64,000 nucleotides of DNA from Candidatus Taylorbacteria bacterium RIFCSPHIGHO2_12_FULL_45_16 (GCA_001821055.1 MHRT01000007.1:7931-71930); one strand, 5' to 3'. Positions 9,876 through 48,646 are shown, counted from the stretch's first letter. The notes: a model not told the origin generated them from the letters alone. Numbers and translations: made by a program.

Positions 9876-9951
9876 TGGTGCGAGTGGGGCGGTCTCGAAC
9901 CCCCGACCTCCGCCGTGTTGGGGCGGCGCTCTGCCTCTGAGCTACACTCGC
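9876..9951 (-). ncRNA. tRNA-like element 1 inside the helix-45 IVS (76 nt, encoded CCA); non-canonical anticodon loop
   Basis: Sequence GCGAGTG-TA-GCTC-AGAGGCA-GAGC-G-CCGCC-CCAACAC-GGCGG-AGGTC-GGGGG-TTCGAGA-CCGCC(C)-CACTCGC-A-CCA. The acceptor stem is a perfect 7 bp. Position 33 is C and the anticodon reads AAC. There is one mismatch or an extra nucleotide in the T-arm. Confidence 0.45.
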
Positions 9952-34941: not shown

Positions 34942-36384
34942 TCATTTCCTCAAAAAAAGCGGCTGTGCCGGAGATTTATTTTCCGCGACGCACTTTTTTA
35001 TGATCTCAGCGCTTATCGGCAATATCGGCTCGAGAAGTAAAGCGACGTCGGCCAATCCCCTGACTAATTGCTCAATAATCCGTGTCGCGTGATCTTTGGT
35101 GGCAGAATCTTTGGCTTTTTTGAACGGCTCTTCTTTCTGAATCAGAGCATCGAGCTTGCCAATCTTTGACCAAATAATATCCGATGCCGCTTTGACATCG
35201 TACCTGGCCAGCGCCGCGTCATATGATTCCGGAATGACCGGCGTAACCGGAACTTTTTTTATATTCACCTCCGCCATTTTCATAATCCGGCTGGTTAAGT
35301 TGCCGACGCCATTCGCCAAATGCGCGTTGTAAGCTTCTCTGAATTTTTCCATCGTAAAAGGACTGTCTTCAAAAGGACTCAATTCGCGAGCCACATAATA
35401 ACGCAACGCTTCCGTGCCATATTCCTTGACAATATCAAGCGGATCAACGGTATTGCCGAATGACTTTGACATCTTGACGCCTCCATCACCCGTGACAAAG
35501 CCGTCAATGACGATAGCGTGAGTCGGTGGCAACTTCGCGGCCATAAGCATCGCCTGCCACATGGCAGACTGTTGACGAAGATTGTCTTTGCCGCAATATT
35601 GGACCGGAGTCCCGTTTTTCCAAAATGTCTCAAATGTCTTCATGTCTTCCGGCCAGCCAAGCGTAGAGACATAATTGACCAATGCGTCGAACCAAACATA
35701 CATCACATGCTTGTCGTCGCTGGGGACGGAGATACCCCACGGCATTTTGGTCGCCAGACGGGAAATACTAAAATCTTCCAACCCACGCCCAACAAAAGCT
35801 TTTATCTCATTGAACCGGAAATCCGGCACCACCAGCATCGGATTTTCGGCGTAAAGTTCCAATAGCGGCTTTTGGAAGGCGCTGAACTTAAAAAAATAAT
35901 TCTCCTCATCAATCAGAATCAACTCCGTGGTAGGGTGAATGAAACATCTGCCTTGATCGTCAAGCTCGACGTCTGTTTTCTCCAGCTCACAGCCAGGGCA
36001 ATATTTCGTCTTGTAAAGTTTTTTGTATATAAAGCCGTTCTTGTCACACCGGCGCCAAAACTCTTGGGCGGCCGAAACATGATGCGGATCGGTCGTGCGG
36101 ACAAAGTGTATATCATCGCTCAAACCAAGCACGCTCTTGAGCTCTTTAAACTTGGTGGCATATCGATCAACAAATACTTGCGTATTCTCGTTGGAATTGA
36201 AGGCTTTTTGGTAAATTTTAACCCCATGCTCATCGGTCCCTGTATTGAAAAAAACCTCATATCCGGCTATTTTTTTGGCCCTGGCAATGATGTCGGCTCG
36301 GATAATTTCCATGGCAAAGCCGATATGTGGGTCGGAATTGACATATGGAAGCGTGGTGGTGATATAGAAAGGTTTTTTGCTCAT
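34942..36384 (-). CDS. metG: Methionyl-tRNA synthetase
   Basis: Class I HIGH-region YVNSDPHIGFAME, KMSKS, and a C-terminal anticodon-binding domain. Confidence 0.9.
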   Translation of the reverse strand: MSKKPFYITTTLPYVNSDPHIGFAMEIIRADIIARAKKIAGYEVFFNTGTDEHGVKIYQKAFNSNENTQVFVDRYATKFKELKSVLGLSDDIHFVRTTDPHHVSAAQEFWRRCDKNGFIYKKLYKTKYCPGCELEKTDVELDDQGRCFIHPTTELILIDEENYFFKFSAFQKPLLELYAENPMLVVPDFRFNEIKAFVGRGLEDFSISRLATKMPWGISVPSDDKHVMYVWFDALVNYVSTLGWPEDMKTFETFWKNGTPVQYCGKDNLRQQSAMWQAMLMAAKLPPTHAIVIDGFVTGDGGVKMSKSFGNTVDPLDIVKEYGTEALRYYVARELSPFEDSPFTMEKFREAYNAHLANGVGNLTSRIMKMAEVNIKKVPVTPVIPESYDAALARYDVKAASDIIWSKIGKLDALIQKEEPFKKAKDSATKDHATRIIEQLVRGLADVALLLEPILPISAEIIKKCVAENKSPAQPLFLRK

Positions 36385-39000: not shown

Positions 39001-40404
39001 TCAGACCATACTCACTCTAAGTTTGTCAACCAGCTCCTTCTCTGAAACCCTCTCCTGCCCACCCGTATCCCTATCCCTCACAGTCACCCCTGCGTGTTTT
39101 TCGATAGTCTCAAAATCAACAGTGACACAGAATGGCGTACCGATCTCGTCTTGTCTGCGGTAGCGCTTGCCAATGTTGCCATTGTCATCAAAAACGACCG
39201 CTCCGAATTCTTTTTTGAGTGTGGTGTAAATTTCGCTGGCTTTTTCAACAAGCTGTGGTTTATTTTTCAGCAATGGAAAGACGGCGATTTTCACAGGCGC
39301 CAGCTTCGGCGATAGTCTCAAAACTACTCTAGTTTTTCCTCCAAGCTCGTCCTCGTGGTAAGCATCTGCCATTACTGCGAGAAATACACGGCCTAGTCCC
39401 ATGGATGTTTCGAGTATCCATGGTATATATTTTTCAACAGTCTTTGGATCCGTATAGCGCAAATCTATTCCAGAGAACTTCATGTGCTGTGTTAGGTCAT
39501 AGTCCGTACGATCATGAATGCCTTCAATTTCATCAAAGCCGAATGTTGGAAAATCATATTCAATATCCCATGCATCTTTCGCATAAAATACGAGATGTTC
39601 ATGCTGTTTGAAACGCAACTTCTCTTCATCGATGCCCAACGATAGATACCACTGCCATCGATCCTTCTTTATTGCTTCATATGCTTCTTTGTTCTCATTT
39701 GGGCGGACAAAAAACTGAGTGTCAGCCTGCTCGAACTCGCGTGTTCTGAAAAGGAAGTTACGTGGAGAGATTTCATTTCGGAAGGCCTTACCCATTTGAG
39801 CAACTCCAAATGGAATTGACGGTTGGAGCGTATCAACTATATTCTTGAAATTAAGGTAGATACCCTGACATGCTTCACCGGGCAAATATACAGGCTCACT
39901 GCCTGCTGAAGTGAAATCACCTAGATTGGTCTTTACCAAAAGATTGAAAGCTCGTACTGCAGTAAAATCTTTCTTACCGCAACTAGGACAAACCATTTCG
40001 TTGCGATGCGCATCAAAAAGGTCATTCAGATCCTTTTCTGACATCTTTTCGTCTGCGGCGACGCCAATTTTTGCGAGTTCCTTGTCTACGCGGATACGTG
40101 TGTTGCATTTGCGACATTCAGCCATAGGATCCACAAAGCCTTTTGTATGTCCGCTGGCTTCCCAGACACGAGGATGCTTGAACATGCCCGAATCAAGACC
40201 GTAATAATTTTCCTTATCGTATACGTTCGCTTTCCACCATGACGCTTTGATGTTATTCAAAAGTTCTACTCCCCGTGGACCGAAGTCATAAACGCCAGCT
40301 AGTCCACCATAAATCTCCGAACCCTGATAGACAAACCCTCGCCTCTTGCACAAAGCGATCAGGTTTTCCATGCTGTTTTCTTTCGTTGCTTCCTTTTTAC
40401 TCAT
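39001..40404 (-). CDS. glyQS: Glycyl-tRNA synthetase (alpha2 dimeric type)
   Basis: LIALCKRRGFVYQGSEIYGGLAGVYDFGPRGVELLNNIK... and class II motifs. Confidence 0.9.
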   Translation of the reverse strand: MSKKEATKENSMENLIALCKRRGFVYQGSEIYGGLAGVYDFGPRGVELLNNIKASWWKANVYDKENYYGLDSGMFKHPRVWEASGHTKGFVDPMAECRKCNTRIRVDKELAKIGVAADEKMSEKDLNDLFDAHRNEMVCPSCGKKDFTAVRAFNLLVKTNLGDFTSAGSEPVYLPGEACQGIYLNFKNIVDTLQPSIPFGVAQMGKAFRNEISPRNFLFRTREFEQADTQFFVRPNENKEAYEAIKKDRWQWYLSLGIDEEKLRFKQHEHLVFYAKDAWDIEYDFPTFGFDEIEGIHDRTDYDLTQHMKFSGIDLRYTDPKTVEKYIPWILETSMGLGRVFLAVMADAYHEDELGGKTRVVLRLSPKLAPVKIAVFPLLKNKPQLVEKASEIYTTLKKEFGAVVFDDNGNIGKRYRRQDEIGTPFCVTVDFETIEKHAGVTVRDRDTGGQERVSEKELVDKLRVSMV

Positions 40405-42588: not shown

Positions 42589-43176
42589 TTACAGATGCGA
42601 CTCCTTCAAGGCCTTATTGATGTGCCGATTCATGTTAGTTCTCTGTTTCATTGCCTCATCAATCAAACTGGTGCTTAGTGGTTCGCCGATAATTCTAGCA
42701 TCAAGTTTTTTATCGGTTCCGATATAGCCAAGCAGATGTAAAATCCTGAAGACGATTATTGATTCTAGAGTTTGCATTTGTTCTGCTGATAGCTTATTGG
42801 AATCGGTTGAATCTTCCAAAAATAGAAAAGACCGTTCGATATGCCCAAATAATTCGACATGAGCCTCCTCCCCATGAAGCAAGCGACATAGAAGAAAAGC
42901 GACGCGTCCAGTGAGGCTAGACCTTGATATATCAAGGTCGGGCCTCACTGAATCAGCATTCGTCAGCCGCCAAAACTCTTTTCCACGCACGAACGAAAAT
43001 TCGCCAAACGAATATTCCTGCGAATGATAGCGCAGTTTTGACTTTTCCAGCCGTATTCCCTGCGCAGTTGCCAAGACCAATCCAAGGTCACGAGTAAAAA
43101 TTGACAGCAATTTTCCCGATTCACCTCTAGGGCGAGATTTAATGATGAATCCTGGAGTGGTGTGGATTATGTGCAT
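42589..43176 (-). CDS. recO: RecO-like DNA repair protein (short form)
   Basis: N-terminal OB fold PGFIIKSRPRGESGKLLSIFTRDLGLVLATAQGIRLEKSKL. Confidence 0.55.
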   Translation of the reverse strand: MHIIHTTPGFIIKSRPRGESGKLLSIFTRDLGLVLATAQGIRLEKSKLRYHSQEYSFGEFSFVRGKEFWRLTNADSVRPDLDISRSSLTGRVAFLLCRLLHGEEAHVELFGHIERSFLFLEDSTDSNKLSAEQMQTLESIIVFRILHLLGYIGTDKKLDARIIGEPLSTSLIDEAMKQRTNMNRHINKALKESHL

Positions 43177-43180
43177 GATA

Positions 43181-43208
43181 GCTTTTACCGAGGTGGAACC
43201 TCAGTAAG
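43181..43208 (+). repeat. Partial copy of the intergenic repeat family (gcttttaccgaggtggaacctc); it supplies the last six codons and stop of ileS
   Basis: Matches the 3' part of copies 2 and 3. The ileS C-terminus TEVPPR* is encoded within it. Confidence 0.55.
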
Positions 43209-46200
43209 AGTTACTTTAAACTCAACATCCCCTGTCACCACTGGTTCTCCAACCACACTCCCAAATCTAACTTCAGAAATAGTGCACGCCGCCTTCACTT
43301 GTTTTTCATTATCCTCAACAAATTTCCGTCCAGCGCCATTGGTATCCAAAATAAGCACAGCTTTGTCATTCATACTCAATCCTTTTTCTTTACGCAGATC
43401 CTGAATGGCACGGATAAGTTCGCGGGTCATACCCTCCTCTTTGAGTGTGGGGGTGATGGTCGTATCCAATTCGACATCTTTCTCGATTGTAACTCCAAAG
43501 ACGACCTCCTTCACATTCACTTCATCCTTGATCAGTCCCACAAAATTATCCGCCAATGACTTTGATTTTTGATTTTTAACTTTTAACTTGCTCAAGGGCT
43601 GTCTGATATTGATCTTGGCCGCCATGCGCGCTTCCAGGCCTTTTGAACAAAGAGTGCGGACCGTCTCCATGTTGGCGATTAGATCCGAGTCAATTTTCTC
43701 CGCCGCCGGCCATGTTTCAAGATGCACACTCTCCAATCCTCCACCGACTTCTTGATACAAATAATCAGCGAAGAATGGTGAAAACGGCGCCATGATTTTT
43801 GCCAAAGTAATAAGCACATATCGCGTGGTCAAAATAGCCATTTCTTTGTCAACTAAATCGCTTCCCTTGAACCGATCACGCGAGCGACGGATATACCATT
43901 GCGACAAATCACCGACAAAGTCCCGAATTGAACGAGTTGGTTCTTGAAATGTGTAAGCATCCAATCCTCTAGTCACAATCTCTGTGATCTGATTGAGTCG
44001 GGTTATTATCCAGCAATCAAGGATATTGACACTAACCTTTATCCCTCCGCTTCTCTGCTTCTTTTCTCCCCCATACATCTTGTAAAACGACAATACATTC
44101 CCCGCTAGATTGAAGACTTTCTTGACTATTTCATCTACTGTTTTCTCCTCAAAATTCTTTGAGTCACCGGGCTGATTGACCGAATACATCCAGTAGCGCA
44201 GGGCGTCAGCTCCATATTTATCCATCATCTCCCAAGGAGAGATGACATTACCAACCGACTTGGACATTTTTTTGCCATGGGCATCTAGGATATGGCCCAA
44301 ACAGATGACATTTTTGAATGCTTTACCCTTGCCCATGAGTATGCCGACTGCGTGCAATGTATAAAACCAACCACGCGTCTGATCTATGGCTTCGGAGATG
44401 AAGTCTGCTGGGTAGGCTAGATCTTGTTTTTCGGAAAAAAAACGGCTGAATGTATTTCCTCCTTTTACAAATGGGTAATGGTCCTGCGCGAACGGCATAG
44501 ATCCAGAATCAAACCAGACGTCCATGACTTCTTTGACACGCGACATCGTGCCGCCACAGGCACAAGACAATTTAACTTCGTCGATATGCGGGCGATGTAG
44601 ATCAAGCTCGTATTCGGCGTTGTGCGGAATCACCGAAAAATCAACCAGACGAATCTCTGAATTGTTTATGTATTGGCTTTTTTCCAATTCGATGGAGCAG
44701 ACGCGGTCAAGACCCTTGGCAGAGGAGAGCAACATCATGGCCGGTGTCGCATGAGTAATGATGAGTATCGTCTTGTTAACATATTTTCCGTCAATTTCAT
44801 AGAGAAAATCCCCGGTGCGTTTTTTGACATCGCCGTATCTTTCGGCGCCAGGTGGTACATGTTCGAAGCGAGACTCAAACGGAAATGTTTCAGACAAATC
44901 CTTGACTTTCTTGCCATCATAGTCGCCAAAATCAAGTTCATTCAGTCGTTCGTCGATAATGACCTTATCATCTGAAAAACCGAGCGCCTCTTGAATAATG
45001 GCCGCAGTCCGGCGCGCTCGCAAAAACGAGGAGTGATAGATGAGATCAATGCCTTTGCCTTTGAGAGAGATAGCTGTTTTATTTACATCTTCTTCGCCGA
45101 CAGAAGTGAGATCAAACAGTTCACGGTCTTGGGAATTTAAGATTCCTTCAGTATTATTTTCCGCTTCCCCGTGGCGCATAATATGATAGGTATTTCGCGA
45201 CTTCTGGGCAATCTCCTGCACCGAACCAACAACTTTACTCTTTTGACAAGTACCACAGATCCAAACAGGCAATGGCGTGCCCCAATATCGTTCGCGGGAA
45301 ATAGCCCAGTCTTTGATCTCACGAAGCCATTCGCCAAATCTGCCATCCTTGATATATGCCGGTTCCCAGTGAATACCTTCGTTTTCTTTGATTAGTTCCT
45401 TTCGTAAAGAAGACATTCTGATGTACCAAGAGTCGCGAGCAAAGTAGATTAGAGAAGTTTTACAGCGCCAACAAAATGGATAGCTATGCTGGTGCTTTTC
45501 TTTGTGAAATAGAAGGCTACCGTCCGGGCGATTGGCTAGATCCTTTATTATCTCAACATCGGTGGCCTCATCTCTGACGAATTTTCCCGCCAAAAACCCA
45601 GCCACCTTTTTGAAAGTTCCATCTTCATTGACCAAATGATATCTTGGCAAACCTACTTTGGTCCCAAGTTCAAAATCGTCCTGACCGTACATGACGGCCG
45701 TGTGTACGATACCAGTGCCGTCCGTAGTTGTGACGAAATCAGCGGCATATACTTTGTAAGCATTCGAAAGTTTTTCCTTTTCAGCACCGGAGATAGAATC
45801 TTGTAGAAAGGAGTAAAGAGGTTCATATTCAAGACCGATAAGTTCTTTCCCTTTTATTGTTTCAAGAATTTTGGCGTCTTTGAATCGTTCCCCAAGGACA
45901 CTTGTGCGATCCTTAGCAAGAACATAGTATTCCAAATCCAAGGTTGGACTTTGCACAGCCACTTGTACGTACTCAATGTTCGGATTCACCGCCAGGGCGA
46001 CATTCCCCGGCAATGTCCACGGTGTGGTTGTCCAAGCCAATAAATACACTTCTTTACTGTCAGATGTTTTCGGAAAAATCTTCTCAATGTTTGTGATTCG
46101 AAACTTCACTGTCACAGCCAAATCTTTCACATCCTGGTAACCCTGCGCCAATTCATGCGAAGACAGCCCCGTTCCGCAACGCGGACACCAAGGCACAACC

Positions 46201-46747
46201 TTGTAATCTTTGTACAAGAGTTTCTTCTCGTCAATCGTCTTCACGATATTCCAGAGAGACTCAATATATGAAGACTTATAAGTGATGTACGGATCCTTTA
46301 AATCAACCCAATATCCCATCCGGTTAGTGAAATCAGCCCACTCATGTACATGTTTCCAGACACTTTCCTTGCATTTTTCGTTGAACGCGCCAATGCCGTA
46401 GGCTTCTATCTCTTTCTTGGATTTCAGGCCCAACTCTTTTTCAACCTGCAACTCAACCGGCAGACCATGAGTATCCCAGCCACCTTTGCGCCTCACATGA
46501 AAACCACACATTGTTTTGTAACGCGGAATAGCATCCTTGAAAGCTCGGGCTTCAAGATGGTGAATGCCCGGAAGTCCATTGGCCGTCGGTGGACCTTCAA
46601 AAAATACGAACTCTTTGCCGCCCTCGGTCTTTTTAAGCGACTTCTCAAAAATCCCTCTCTCTTTCCAGAAAGTCAAGATCTTCTCTTCACGCTCGGCGTG
46701 GGGAGATTTGGTTTGGTTATTTTTTTGTTGATTATTTAATTCAGCCA
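43185..46747 (-). CDS. ileS: Isoleucyl-tRNA synthetase with a nested histidine-phosphatase (PGM/SixA-like) domain (start set at MAELNNQQ)
   Basis: HIGH-like GIHHLEA, CP1 WCPRCGTGLS, WAISRERYWGTPLPVW, zinc knuckle WICGTCQ...SCACGG, DVWFDSGSMPF and KMSKS are all present. A ~200-aa insert sits between the two halves of the zinc knuckle. Confidence 0.9.
44700..45190 (-). other. Histidine phosphatase superfamily (branch 1, PGM/SixA/CobC-like) domain nested in ileS
   Basis: YHIMRHGEAENN (RHG catalytic His), SSFLRARRTAAII, RLNELDFGDYDG, PPGAERYGDVKKR, ILIITHATPAMML (second His). Confidence 0.8.
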
Positions 46748-46783
46748 TAATGTCCACACAAATCAATTGGTTCCAACAGAATA

Positions 46784-48610
46784 TCACATCCTCTTCGGCA
46801 CTTTTATCCCCAACAGCCACAAACCATCCGTCATTGTTATAAGGAATGCTTGCGTCAGATTCAGGCGATATGAAGTCAGCGGATCATTTTCGACAATAAT
46901 CTTATTAGTCGCATAGTAGACGTTGAAAGCCCCGGCCAGAGTGATCAAATAATTGGCGACATGTTGTGGTGCGTATTCCATCCTGGCGTGTTCAACAATA
47001 TCCGGAAATCTTGATATTAATTTTTCTAATAATGTAACCGACTCTGGAAGTATCCCAACAAGGTCGGGCCTTGGGATGATCTGCGCCTGACTTTCAGTTT
47101 GCGAATTTTGATTATTTCCTTCTTTGTTTCTTTGCTTGTCTTTCGATACTTTAGCATAGGAGGACTTTTTTCCTTTTTCCAATACTGCTCCCGCCCTCAC
47201 CGCCGCGTATTGCAAATAAGGCCCGGAATCCCCTTCAAATGAGATAGACGCCGCTGAATCAAAAATAACATCACTGCCGATGGTTTGGCGTAGAATCGTG
47301 TATTTTATCGCCCCGACCGCCACAATATCGGAGATTTCCTCTTTTTCAGCCGGACTCAATTCGCGATCGGAGATTTTATCCATCACCAAAGATTTGATCT
47401 CGCCAAGCAATGATTCAGCTGAAATAACATTGCCTTTCCGCGAAGCCATCTTCCCCGAAGCGAAACGAAGCATGCCGTGTGAAATATGTTTTGTTTTGGT
47501 GAATATGTTTTGGTCAATCAGTGAGAATGCTTTCAAAAGGACTTTGAAATAATCATTTTGTTCATTGGCTGTAATGATTATCGATTCAGTCAGATCGGGA
47601 TATTTTTTGAATTTTTCGATATTCAAACCGATCTCTTTGGCCTCATAGGTGGGCAGTCCCTGCGAAGTGATGAAGACGCGGGTATGCAGTCCATAATCCT
47701 CTCCTTTGAAGATTACGGCTCCTTCACTTTCGGTGAATACGCCTTTCTTGAGAAACTCACGGACGACCTTGATTCCATTGTCAGCAACCTCACTTTCAAA
47801 AAAGAATTCATTGAACTTGGTACCGAGGCTGGCGTAAATAATATCAAAATATTCCAGGCTCCATTTTCTACCCTGGACATATATTTCATTAATATCTTTA
47901 TCCGATTTTTCAAAGATTTTCTTGTTTATCACCGCGATTTCTTTTTGAACCGCCTCATCATCGTCAAATTTTGCCCCAGAAACATACATCTCCCCAAGCC
48001 ATTTGACTTTTTCCGTAACAGAACCGAGATTTTCCCCACGCTTCTCATTTTTGCTTCTTTCCTTTTCTTTTTGTATCGCCCAAATCGTCTTGGCCACATG
48101 CAAACCCACATCACCTTGATAACAGGCGCGGATGACCTCCGCACCGGAGCCTTCAGTCAACCGAGAAATCGACTCGCCGATTGCATTTGACATCAGATGC
48201 CCAATATGAAAAGCCTTGAATGGATTTGGATCAGTATACTCAACCATCACTTTTTTGGAGGTCCGACCTCCAGATCTGTGGATCCGACCCACAGATAGAG
48301 CCGTGGCAACAATCTCTTCCACGAAAACTTTATCCTTGATTTTAAAATTGATAAATCCGGGACCATCAACAGAAATCGATTCGACAAAGCTTAATTTCTC
48401 GCCCAAATATTTTTTTAGTTCGGTAATTATTTTCTCCGCCAGAATTTTCGGTGCCATGTCGAGCTGTTTGGCATAAATCATCGCCACATTGCAGGAAAAA
48501 TCACCATGTGCTGGGTTTTCGGGATATTCCAGCTTGAAAGATGGCATGTCGATGCCCAATCCGACCAAAATCTTATCCACAGCTTGTCCCAGTTCGACTT
48601 TCATATTCAT
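46784..48610 (-). CDS. argS: Arginyl-tRNA synthetase (start set at MNMKV)
   Basis: HIGH motif PFKAFHIGHL, an N-terminal Arg_tRNA_synt_N-like domain, and a C-terminal DALR anticodon-binding region. Confidence 0.9.
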   Translation of the reverse strand: MNMKVELGQAVDKILVGLGIDMPSFKLEYPENPAHGDFSCNVAMIYAKQLDMAPKILAEKIITELKKYLGEKLSFVESISVDGPGFINFKIKDKVFVEEIVATALSVGRIHRSGGRTSKKVMVEYTDPNPFKAFHIGHLMSNAIGESISRLTEGSGAEVIRACYQGDVGLHVAKTIWAIQKEKERSKNEKRGENLGSVTEKVKWLGEMYVSGAKFDDDEAVQKEIAVINKKIFEKSDKDINEIYVQGRKWSLEYFDIIYASLGTKFNEFFFESEVADNGIKVVREFLKKGVFTESEGAVIFKGEDYGLHTRVFITSQGLPTYEAKEIGLNIEKFKKYPDLTESIIITANEQNDYFKVLLKAFSLIDQNIFTKTKHISHGMLRFASGKMASRKGNVISAESLLGEIKSLVMDKISDRELSPAEKEEISDIVAVGAIKYTILRQTIGSDVIFDSAASISFEGDSGPYLQYAAVRAGAVLEKGKKSSYAKVSKDKQRNKEGNNQNSQTESQAQIIPRPDLVGILPESVTLLEKLISRFPDIVEHARMEYAPQHVANYLITLAGAFNVYYATNKIIVENDPLTSYRLNLTQAFLITMTDGLWLLGIKVPKRM

Positions 48611-48646
48611 AGGCCTATTGTAGCAAATCAGGCCACAAATCACGCC

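Follow-up and report, generated by a model that had tools for sequence, protein, structure and literature searches.

We analyzed a 64,000-nucleotide stretch of DNA from Candidatus Taylorbacteria bacterium RIFCSPHIGHO2_12_FULL_45_16 (MHRT01000007.1:7931-71930; this whole stretch is called the window below) in which the ileS gene encodes a complete isoleucyl-tRNA synthetase (IleRS) with a complete branch-1 histidine-phosphatase domain nested in frame inside its zinc-knuckle loop. This nesting had been proposed in an earlier note made from the sequence alone, and Pfam searches, alignment, and AlphaFold modeling all establish it. The guest is very probably an active phosphatase domain that was captured from a neighboring gene. 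On balance, we favor the view that the gene, designated ileS::hp, specifies a bifunctional enzyme, a type 2 IleRS (IleRS2) with a phosphatase captured from the next gene, in which the coupling has been selected and the phosphatase acts on a phosphomonoester linked to aminoacylation.

An intact IleRS2 with a phosphatase domain at the tip of its CP3 zinc ribbon

The ileS::hp open reading frame (ORF) is uninterrupted on the minus strand over 43185..46820, and from its MAELNN start (window 43185-46748) it encodes a continuous protein of 1187 amino acids, the length given by the earlier note, which had also placed correctly every motif that it quoted (Table 1). The Pfam family tRNA-synt_1 matches this protein in two pieces, residues 24-519 and ~739-885, with His_Phos_1 between them, and the NCBIfam model TIGR00392 (ileS) scores the whole protein at 872.4 bits against a cut-off of 621.4, despite a match split by the insert. 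Type 2 IleRSs are eukaryote/archaea-like enzymes that have a type-2 C-terminal domain and no C-terminal zinc-binding domain. The window enzyme was assigned to type 2 from its DUF5915 domain (residues 1092-1180) and from its best matches in the Protein Data Bank (PDB), which are the Priestia megaterium IleRS2 (PmIleRS2; 8C8U/V/W) and the Thermus thermophilus IleRS (1ILE), with phmmer E values of 3e-237 and 1e-231, respectively. Both rank far above the IleRS1 structures 8C9E and 1FFY, and both contain all of the IleRS domains in the same order as the window enzyme.

Conservation was scored in the 120 best full-length homologs for catalytic and cysteine residues and in 118 homologs for the motifs of the host synthetase. 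Within the latter set, H64 of the class I signature is invariant, and G61, I62, and H63 are nearly so. What the earlier note had described as a HIGH-like motif is present, and it can be specified further as the swapped GXHH signature that the window enzyme shares with a subset of IleRS2 proteins, a form that is compatible with catalysis and gives mupirocin hyper-resistance (PMC10485003). GIHH is kept in the 118 closest homologs; the distant insert-bearing proteins P0315, P0327, and P0357 have the canonical HYGH or HFGH. In the CP1 editing domain, W239-N249, G344, T345, G346, H349, and D358 are invariant, and this region aligns with the isolated IleRS editing-domain structures 1WK8 and 1UE0. 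The sequence WAISRERYWG occupies residues 481-490, D743, V744, W745, D747, S748, and G749 of DVWFDSG are invariant, and the KMSKS loop has invariant K827, M828, and K830 and nearly invariant S829 and S831. The host is an ordinary housekeeping IleRS2 whose Rossmann fold, CP1, anticodon-binding, and C-terminal domains are all intact, and its conservation (74% mean identity outside the insert) suggests that it charges tRNA-Ile with isoleucine.

The insert lies between the two cysteine pairs of the CP3 zinc knuckle, and its insertion point maps against solved IleRS structures. When the protein is aligned with P. megaterium IleRS2 (8C8W), its residues 515 and 709 fall opposite chain residues 476 and 480, respectively, so the insert comprises residues 516-708 and replaces ~3 residues; an enzyme domain of 193 amino acids at the CP3 tip is found in none of the solved or described IleRSs. 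The interval 44600-45230 reported by the earlier note brackets the insert (44625-45203). The cysteine pairs are 228 residues apart in the window enzyme versus ~40 residues in the insert-free enzyme, the latter a figure on which the earlier note and the present analysis agree, and across all homologs this spacing is held at 225-240 residues. The zinc-knuckle site can be refined as the CP3 subdomain, which has a zinc motif in T. thermophilus IleRS, as in the window enzyme, and which varies in topology among IleRSs (PMC7191050). The phosphatase is present at the tip of the CP3 zinc ribbon, with the base of the insertion clamped by the two cysteine pairs of the ribbon, and there is no break in composition across the insert region.

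The AlphaFold models of this arrangement are confident, as the earlier note had expected. In the full-length model (mean predicted local distance difference test score (pLDDT) of 88.3; predicted template modeling score (pTM) of 0.80), the 10-residue blocks of residues 491-740, junctions included, have mean pLDDT values of 93-98, and the model superposes on 8C8V and 1ILE with template modeling (TM) scores of 0.82 and 0.91, respectively, both normalized to the target. Residues 510-715 modeled alone (61 sequences) gave a pLDDT of 97.1 and a pTM of 0.93.

The Pfam family His_Phos_1 (PF00300), which the earlier note had predicted a profile search would recover, matches residues 523-681 with E=5.1e-30 and 105 bits in context against a threshold of 21.7, and an excerpt of 228 amino acids that includes the insert scores 109.5 bits. 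The motifs of the domain are RHGEAENN (525-532), SSFLRARRTA (573-582), RLNELDFGDYDG (601-612), PGAERYGD (633-640), and ITHA (664-667). Mean identity to the query is 43% in the insert versus 74% in the remainder of the protein. A fast-changing surface, a frozen catalytic core, and a fixed size look like the pattern of purifying selection on an active enzyme domain.

The model of the insert has the alpha/beta fold of the superfamily, and among solved structures its best Foldseek matches were PhoE (1H2E), GpgP (4QIH/6S2Q), and PspA (4IJ6), at TM 0.76-0.79 and E about 1e-13, and matches at TM 0.74-0.79 also take in a riboflavin-pathway phosphatase, CobC, and TIGAR. The best PDB matches by sequence were PhoE/YhfR (1H2E, E=2.6e-11; 1EBB, E=3.9e-11) and PspA (4IJ5, E=1.1e-10), and the best NCBIfam matches were archaeal dPGM, CobC, and PspA. 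The earlier label of PGM/SixA-like was right in that this is a branch-1 histidine phosphatase, but the guest appears to be a compact, probably active enzyme of the PhoE/PspA/GpgP/CobC kind that is closer to these proteins than to SixA or the true mutases.

Assignments to individual families were rejected. The dPGM models gave 81-85 bits versus a cut-off of 225 (NF038349) and 24.8 versus 81.7 (TIGR01258). The dPGMs have an HGN motif after the second histidine and a C-terminal tail; in the insert, H666 is followed by A-T-P (the next residue in the family is E, G, D, or A), and the domain ends ~40 residues past H666. For SixA (TIGR00249), the score was 32.7-36.5 bits versus 74.5, with the match limited to the N-terminal 70 residues. 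The scores for CobC (TIGR03162) and PspA (NF045917) were 71-76 bits versus 162.9 and 47-52 bits versus 350, respectively. The whole protein was also set apart from the GNAT-containing IleRS family NF040702 (307 bits versus 1999), as the GNAT domain is absent from it.

The architecture recurs widely in related Patescibacteria, where the earlier note, which had correctly guessed that the organism belongs to this group, had suggested looking for it. Each of the 120 best full-length homologs in the database (60-71% identical, 1115-1242 amino acids) has both PF00133 and PF00300; among their names are Taylorbacteria, Parcubacteria, and Paceibacterota, and the junction region alone as a query retrieved further fragments at 31-48% identity. 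At 90% identity, the window protein clusters with OHA16317.1 and other entries of Candidatus Taylorbacteria. In a collection with one genome per species, 439 stretches encode a relative; the best 80 of these 439 are the species-level genome loci on which all locus counts for ileS::hp are based. They carry the labels Taylor-, Nomura-, Campbell-, or Yonathbacteria, Paceibacterota, or Minisyncoccia, or are unclassified, taxon labels being coarse for many assemblies. A single intact ORF of 1123-1361 amino acids is present in 67 of the 80 loci; the others are shorter, many of them on contigs that end near the gene. When the insert alone was used as a query and the 150 best 50%-identity cluster representatives were examined, 97 were flanked by IleRS sequence and 40 resembled free proteins of ~190 amino acids. 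The nested architecture is real, old, and common, with hundreds of public sequences, and an assembly artifact is excluded.

Many gene calls start exactly at M353, M445, or M524 (for example, P0246, P0286, P0304, P0262, P0264, P0271, and P0296). A split ileS was considered as a source of these starts and rejected: the three positions are conserved methionines, the gene is intact in 67/80 genome loci, and a protein starting at MRHGE would be without the first beta-strand of the phosphatase. Rather than marking a split synthetase, the internal starts most likely arose when gene callers were run on truncated contigs. Public names for these proteins are generic, either "class I tRNA ligase family protein" or "histidine phosphatase family protein, partial."

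Free relatives of the insert and repeated joining to class I synthetases

Free homologs are 33-40% identical to the insert and have the same length and C-terminal strand; in one group of free paralogs (A1), R11, H12, R64, and H158 are invariant. Loci of the free gene, hp, were scanned with five closer stand-alone sequences as queries, which gave 80 metagenome loci. Of 70 scorable loci, 57 have the arginyl-tRNA synthetase (ArgRS) gene directly upstream of free hp, and in 10 others a single gene intervenes. Of 77 loci, 50 have a same-strand IleRS gene directly downstream, and again 10 others have one gene in between. These neighboring IleRSs (934-1008 amino acids) align to residues 19-517 and 716/718-end of the window enzyme, with only 5-13 residues between the aligned halves; they are without the insert. 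The gene before argS at the free-hp loci encodes an archaeal-type UMP kinase (pyrH), and two further stand-alone hp groups have the same neighbors.

At eight of the loci (L094, L122, L124, L127, L140, L142, L151, and L158), a small toxin-antitoxin pair directly follows free hp in the usual place of ileS. It consists of a ribbon-helix-helix protein of 72 amino acids and a YafQ/ParE-like toxin of 85 amino acids, as checked with Pfam at L094 and by matching ORF sizes at the others.

Within 6 kb of ileS::hp, no free hp gene was found in any of the 80 genome loci, and the 64-kb window contains no second copy. In 54 of these loci, one of the three called ORFs that precede ileS::hp encodes ArgRS, and in 48 the downstream gene is recO-like. 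On the simplest reading of the gene orders, the ancestral state would be a same-strand argS - hp - ileS arrangement in which hp was a free phosphatase of ~190 amino acids; in the clade of the window, the hp coding sequence would then have moved next door, into the part of ileS that encodes the CP3 loop, with loss of the free gene.

Joining of this phosphatase to synthetases was not limited to CP3. ArgRSs with a C-terminal His_Phos_1 domain are represented by P0378/P0382 (88% identical) and P0383 (49% identical to P0378), which lie on independent contigs from ENA, JGI, and Logan (L081 and L082 8001-10070 for P0378/P0382; L083 and L084 for P0383). The fused copies keep the RHG motif and the S-H context of the catalytic histidine. 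In a rough neighbor-joining tree of the domains, the P0378/P0382 and P0383 phosphatases nest in different stand-alone clades, which argues for two separate fusion events. Deep nodes of this tree are poorly resolved, and some ~200-amino acid "stand-alone" representatives that group with inserts are probably fusion fragments, so we used it only to place the ArgRS-fused copies and make no claim of monophyly for the IleRS inserts. Directly after the fused argS at L083 lies ileS. The L081 locus is syntenic with the window and carries hp on argS, and ileS is missing there between argS and recO.

In a further IleRS, P0344 (1419 amino acids; L165 8001-12260), the CP3 zinc knuckle is intact and uninserted, and two hp domains are present at other loops, one after DxWFxSG and the other between the KMSKS module and the anticodon-binding bundle. 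Six members of its 90%-identity cluster, all of 1419 amino acids, are on contigs of up to 1.06 Mb; the neighbors of the P0344 gene (purA, DAHP synthase, POR, and an SLH protein), unlike the typical Paceibacteria set, suggest a different lineage. Still other IleRSs contain two, three, or four hp domains (P0353; P0338/P0507, 1484 amino acids, L168 3428-7882; P0259). P0507 is a complete protein of 1484 amino acids, and the copies in P0353 and P0338 are in tandem between ISRxRYWG and DxWFxS, which is the CP3 position. When the hp domains were scored by motif, the RHG, Arg, and His motifs were found to be kept in the P0344 domains and in most tandem copies. The extra tandem copies form an old clade of their own in the rough tree.

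Taken together, the gene and domain arrangements suggest at least five separate genetic events in which this phosphatase became attached to class Ia synthetases.

Unrelated domains were also seen in patescibacterial synthetases. The ArgRS encoded upstream of ileS at L079 (661 amino acids) has an in-frame GIY-YIG domain at residues 296-362, inside its catalytic domain (Pfam E=1.6e-14). P0357, a partial IleRS of 1066 amino acids from JGI, has a domain like the REP-associated tyrosine transposases in CP1 (NF047646, 81 bits versus a cut-off of 80), together with the CP3 phosphatase and a GNAT domain that runs from ~40 residues after DxWFxS to the end of the partial sequence. P0357 may be a genuine mosaic; alternatively, its ORF may be chimeric or pseudogenized.

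Predicted chemistry and the meaning of the coupling

From the residues that are conserved and the mechanism known for this superfamily, we predict the following chemistry. H526 would attack a terminal phosphomonoester held by R525, R577, and H666, with E604 acting as the general acid that protonates the leaving group, and the phospho-histidine intermediate would then be hydrolyzed. The substrate may be tied to aminoacylation, as a nucleotide by-product, a 2'/3'-phosphorylated nucleotide, or a tRNA 3' end. The substrates named in the earlier note, among them phospho-His and a 2',3'-cyclic phosphate, are speculative. One of these, diadenosine tetraphosphate (Ap4A), was considered unlikely on textbook grounds: ArgRS, also a fusion partner, forms no aminoacyl-adenylate without tRNA, and histidine phosphatases attack terminal phosphomonoesters.

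We think it somewhat more likely than not that the coupling to the synthetase serves a function and is not neutral. It would be selected, we reason, since at least five separate coupling events have occurred and since in-frame insertion within a gene, far less likely to arise by accident than fusion by read-through, is nonetheless found at three IleRS sites. The identity of the target can be given far less firmly, and we regard any substrate directed at tRNA or the synthetase as doubtful at best. One tentative proposal is that the domain would add a third catalytic site to the aminoacylation cycle, for end-healing, in which a 2'/3'-phosphate is taken off damaged tRNA 3' ends, or off nucleotide by-products or inhibitors, at the very place of tRNA charging. 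As an alternative within this proposal, put forward with the same reserve, the domain might reverse an inhibitory phosphorylation of the synthetase. In either case, Patescibacteria would have built the activity into IleRS and ArgRS repeatedly.

Several observations weigh against a selected link to aminoacylation. Adjacency by itself favors fusion, and the recurrence could in part reflect opportunity, not selection. In structure, the insert is nearest to small-molecule phosphatases that serve unrelated pathways, and neither the insert nor its free relatives reach the NCBIfam equivalog cut-offs for dPGM, CobC, PspA, SixA, or GpmB, so the subfamily is uncharacterized. The L081 locus indicates that coupling to IleRS specifically is dispensable, and the GIY-YIG ArgRS and the IleRS with transposase-like and GNAT domains indicate that patescibacterial synthetases tolerate unrelated in-frame insertions. 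The pyrimidine-metabolism genes pyrH, tmk, and glyA are in the neighborhood, which would fit a plain metabolic role, as are sequences that resemble thyA and dut by eye, without a family-library check. A possible, though less likely, account would make the domain a hitch-hiker, an ordinary housekeeping metabolic phosphatase or mutase (a nucleotidase, a sugar or phosphoserine phosphatase, or a small cofactor-dependent mutase would be candidates) that happened to lie between argS and ileS, with neutral fusions, made easier by adjacency and by peripheral synthetase loops that tolerate insertions, and a substrate unrelated to aminoacylation. Besides the metabolic character of the closest structures and of the best NCBIfam families, the nearby genes, and the unrelated insertions just described, this account can draw on the plasticity of CP3, whose topology varies among IleRSs (PMC7191050), and on the precedent of a seemingly unrelated fusion in the RNase H/acid phosphatase PRK07238. 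Isoelectric points (median 6.5 for the inserts, 4.5-10.1 for free hp proteins) are uninformative on nucleic-acid binding, and the insert median gives no hint of a nucleic-acid-binding surface. Neutral hitch-hiking is harder to reconcile with an in-frame insertion ~1.5 kb inside the adjacent gene, which is not a simple read-through fusion, or with the use of three different IleRS sites, two ArgRS fusions, and tandem amplification. Nor would it lead one to expect the absence of free hp within 6 kb at all 80 loci where the insert is present, or linkers that are short and modeled at high confidence.

Two other explanations carry much less weight. It is improbable that the guest is a pseudo-enzyme that has lost catalysis and now helps IleRS structurally, by binding tRNA, or by sensing an allosteric ligand; many synthetase accessory domains have no catalytic role, and the insert evolves faster than its host (43% versus 74% identity), but its five catalytic residues are invariant in 120/120 homologs, and catalytic motifs are retained in the P0344 domains, most tandem copies, the ArgRS-fused copies, and the A1 free paralogs. 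We give practically no credence to a mis-assembly, a frameshift, or an intein-like or otherwise mobile insertion that is excised before the protein is mature. Fragments starting at M353, M445, or M524 are frequent among database entries, and the gene is in two pieces at one genome locus (L046); against this, the identical architecture occurs in hundreds of independent assemblies (NCBI, JGI, ENA, and Logan), 67 of 80 loci have one intact ORF, and fragment starts at conserved methionines are expected of gene callers on truncated contigs. A Pfam scan of the whole protein found no intein, Hint, or homing-endonuclease family, and composition is continuous across the insert. A phosphatase captured by, and selected for coupling to, its neighboring synthetase accordingly stays the reading that we prefer, at the strength given above.

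Gene neighborhood, known systems, and significance

Table 1. Features of ileS::hp and its immediate neighbors in the window
Feature	Window coordinates	Strand	Basis
ileS::hp, IleRS type 2 with nested histidine-phosphatase domain	43185..46748 (including stop codon)	-	ORF, Pfam, NCBIfam, AlphaFold
Class I signature, swapped form GIHH, residues 61-64 (PGIHH, 60-64)	46557..46568	-	Sequence and conservation
CP1 editing domain, residues ~201-420, motifs WTTTPWTLPGN and GTGxVHxAxxYGxDD	45489..46148	-	Conservation, alignment
CP3 zinc knuckle, first half, C498-x-x-C501 (WICGTCQ, 496-502)	45246..45257	-	Cys kept in 119/120 homologs at each position
Inserted His_Phos_1 domain, residues 516-708 (193 amino acids)	44625..45203	-	Alignment to 8C8W, Pfam, AlphaFold
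R525-H526 of RHG motif, H526 predicted nucleophile	45171..45176	-	Invariant in 120/120 homologs
R577, predicted phosphate-binding arginine	45018..45020	-	Invariant in 120/120 homologs
E604, predicted general acid/base	44937..44939	-	Invariant in 120/120 homologs
H666, second catalytic histidine (predicted)	44751..44753	-	Invariant in 120/120 homologs
CP3 zinc knuckle, second half, C729-x-C731 (SCACGG, 728-733)	44556..44564	-	Cys kept in 119/120 homologs at each position
DVWFDSG, residues 743-749; Rossmann fold resumes after CP3	44502..44522	-	Sequence and conservation
KMSKS loop, residues 827-831	44256..44270	-	Sequence and conservation
Anticodon-binding helical domain, residues 911-1054	43587..44018	-	Pfam Anticodon_1, E=2.7e-28
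Type-2 C-terminal domain DUF5915, residues 1092-1180	43209..43475	-	Pfam, E=7e-15
argS, directly upstream of ileS::hp	46784..48643	-	Pfam Arg_tRNA_synt_N, tRNA-synt_1d, DALR_1
recO-like gene, downstream neighbor	42589..43176	-	Pfam RecO_N

The gene order in the window is glyA - argS - ileS::hp - recO - surface protein - class II synthetase - M16 peptidase - AI-2E transporter - metG. Four synthetase genes, metG, a class II gene of the ProRS/HisRS type, ileS, and argS, thus fall within 14 kb on one strand (34942-36384, 39001-40404, and 43185-48643, minus strand), interleaved with recO and the genes for a DUF11 surface protein, the M16 peptidase, and the AI-2E transporter, and this order is kept in the distant locus L081. 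Elsewhere in the window (9876-9951, minus strand), ARAGORN predicts a tRNA-Val with the anticodon AAC. Bacterial tRNAs with A34 are unusual apart from Arg-ACG, and this prediction, if right, would mean that a non-Arg tRNA undergoes A-to-I editing or that unmodified A34 takes part in decoding.

Among characterized proteins, the insert has the fold and the size (~200 amino acids) of the small branch-1 phosphatases PhoE/YhfR of Geobacillus stearothermophilus (1H2E, 1EBB), the phosphoserine phosphatase PspA (4IJ5), the mycobacterial glucosyl-3-phosphoglycerate phosphatase GpgP (Rv2419c, 4QIH), and the alpha-ribazole phosphatase CobC (6E4B), at TM 0.74-0.79, and it aligns in sequence with PhoE/YhfR and PspA over the RHG, Arg, Glu, and His motifs. 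It differs from these enzymes in being only 19-24% identical to them and nested in or fused to a synthetase rather than free, and its own free relatives are a patescibacterial subfamily linked to argS and ileS. Extra catalytic domains inside class I synthetases have counterparts in the CP1 editing domain of Ile/Val/LeuRS and in the N-acetyltransferase domain of the IleRS family NF040702, from which the insert differs in chemistry (predicted phosphomonoester hydrolysis) and in site (CP3); CP1 is universal and ancient, whereas the window insert is confined to a clade and can be traced to a donor gene. A phosphatase of the CobC/PhoE kind is also fused to a nucleic-acid enzyme in the bifunctional RNase H/acid phosphatase PRK07238, of the Rv2228c type. 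The insert matches the phosphatase half of that protein (E=1.8e-20), at a score of 73.6 versus a cut-off of 326, but that fusion is end to end and has another partner.

The earlier note had been aware of no synthetase with an embedded phosphatase. A full-text literature search, whose coverage left out most subscription journals, likewise returned no description of a synthetase with a histidine-phosphatase domain, and recent papers on IleRS phylogeny and structure mention neither a phosphatase nor Patescibacteria; the architecture itself, however, is not rare, being present in hundreds of public sequences. An additional catalytic domain in a class I synthetase is known from CP1; what is new is the phosphatase as guest, the CP3 site, and the recurrent capture.

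Accessory domains of synthetases have repeatedly revealed new biology, including editing, signaling, and complex assembly. An active phosphatase in the catalytic body of an essential synthetase would, if confirmed, add a new chemistry to this list, and its presence at three IleRS sites, its capture by ArgRS, and its tandem amplification argue against an accidental link. Were the domain to act as a third catalytic site on the aminoacylation cycle, it would represent a previously unknown class of synthetase-associated activity. For annotation, it is of note that these proteins go under generic public names, and for protein evolution, the system is a clean example of domain insertion in which the donor gene, the acceptor gene, and intermediate states can all still be observed. 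Patescibacteria are a very large and mostly uncultured group with reduced genomes, where unusual fusions often hold functions that seem to be missing, and ileS::hp offers a testable handle on a step of translation or of nucleotide housekeeping in these organisms.

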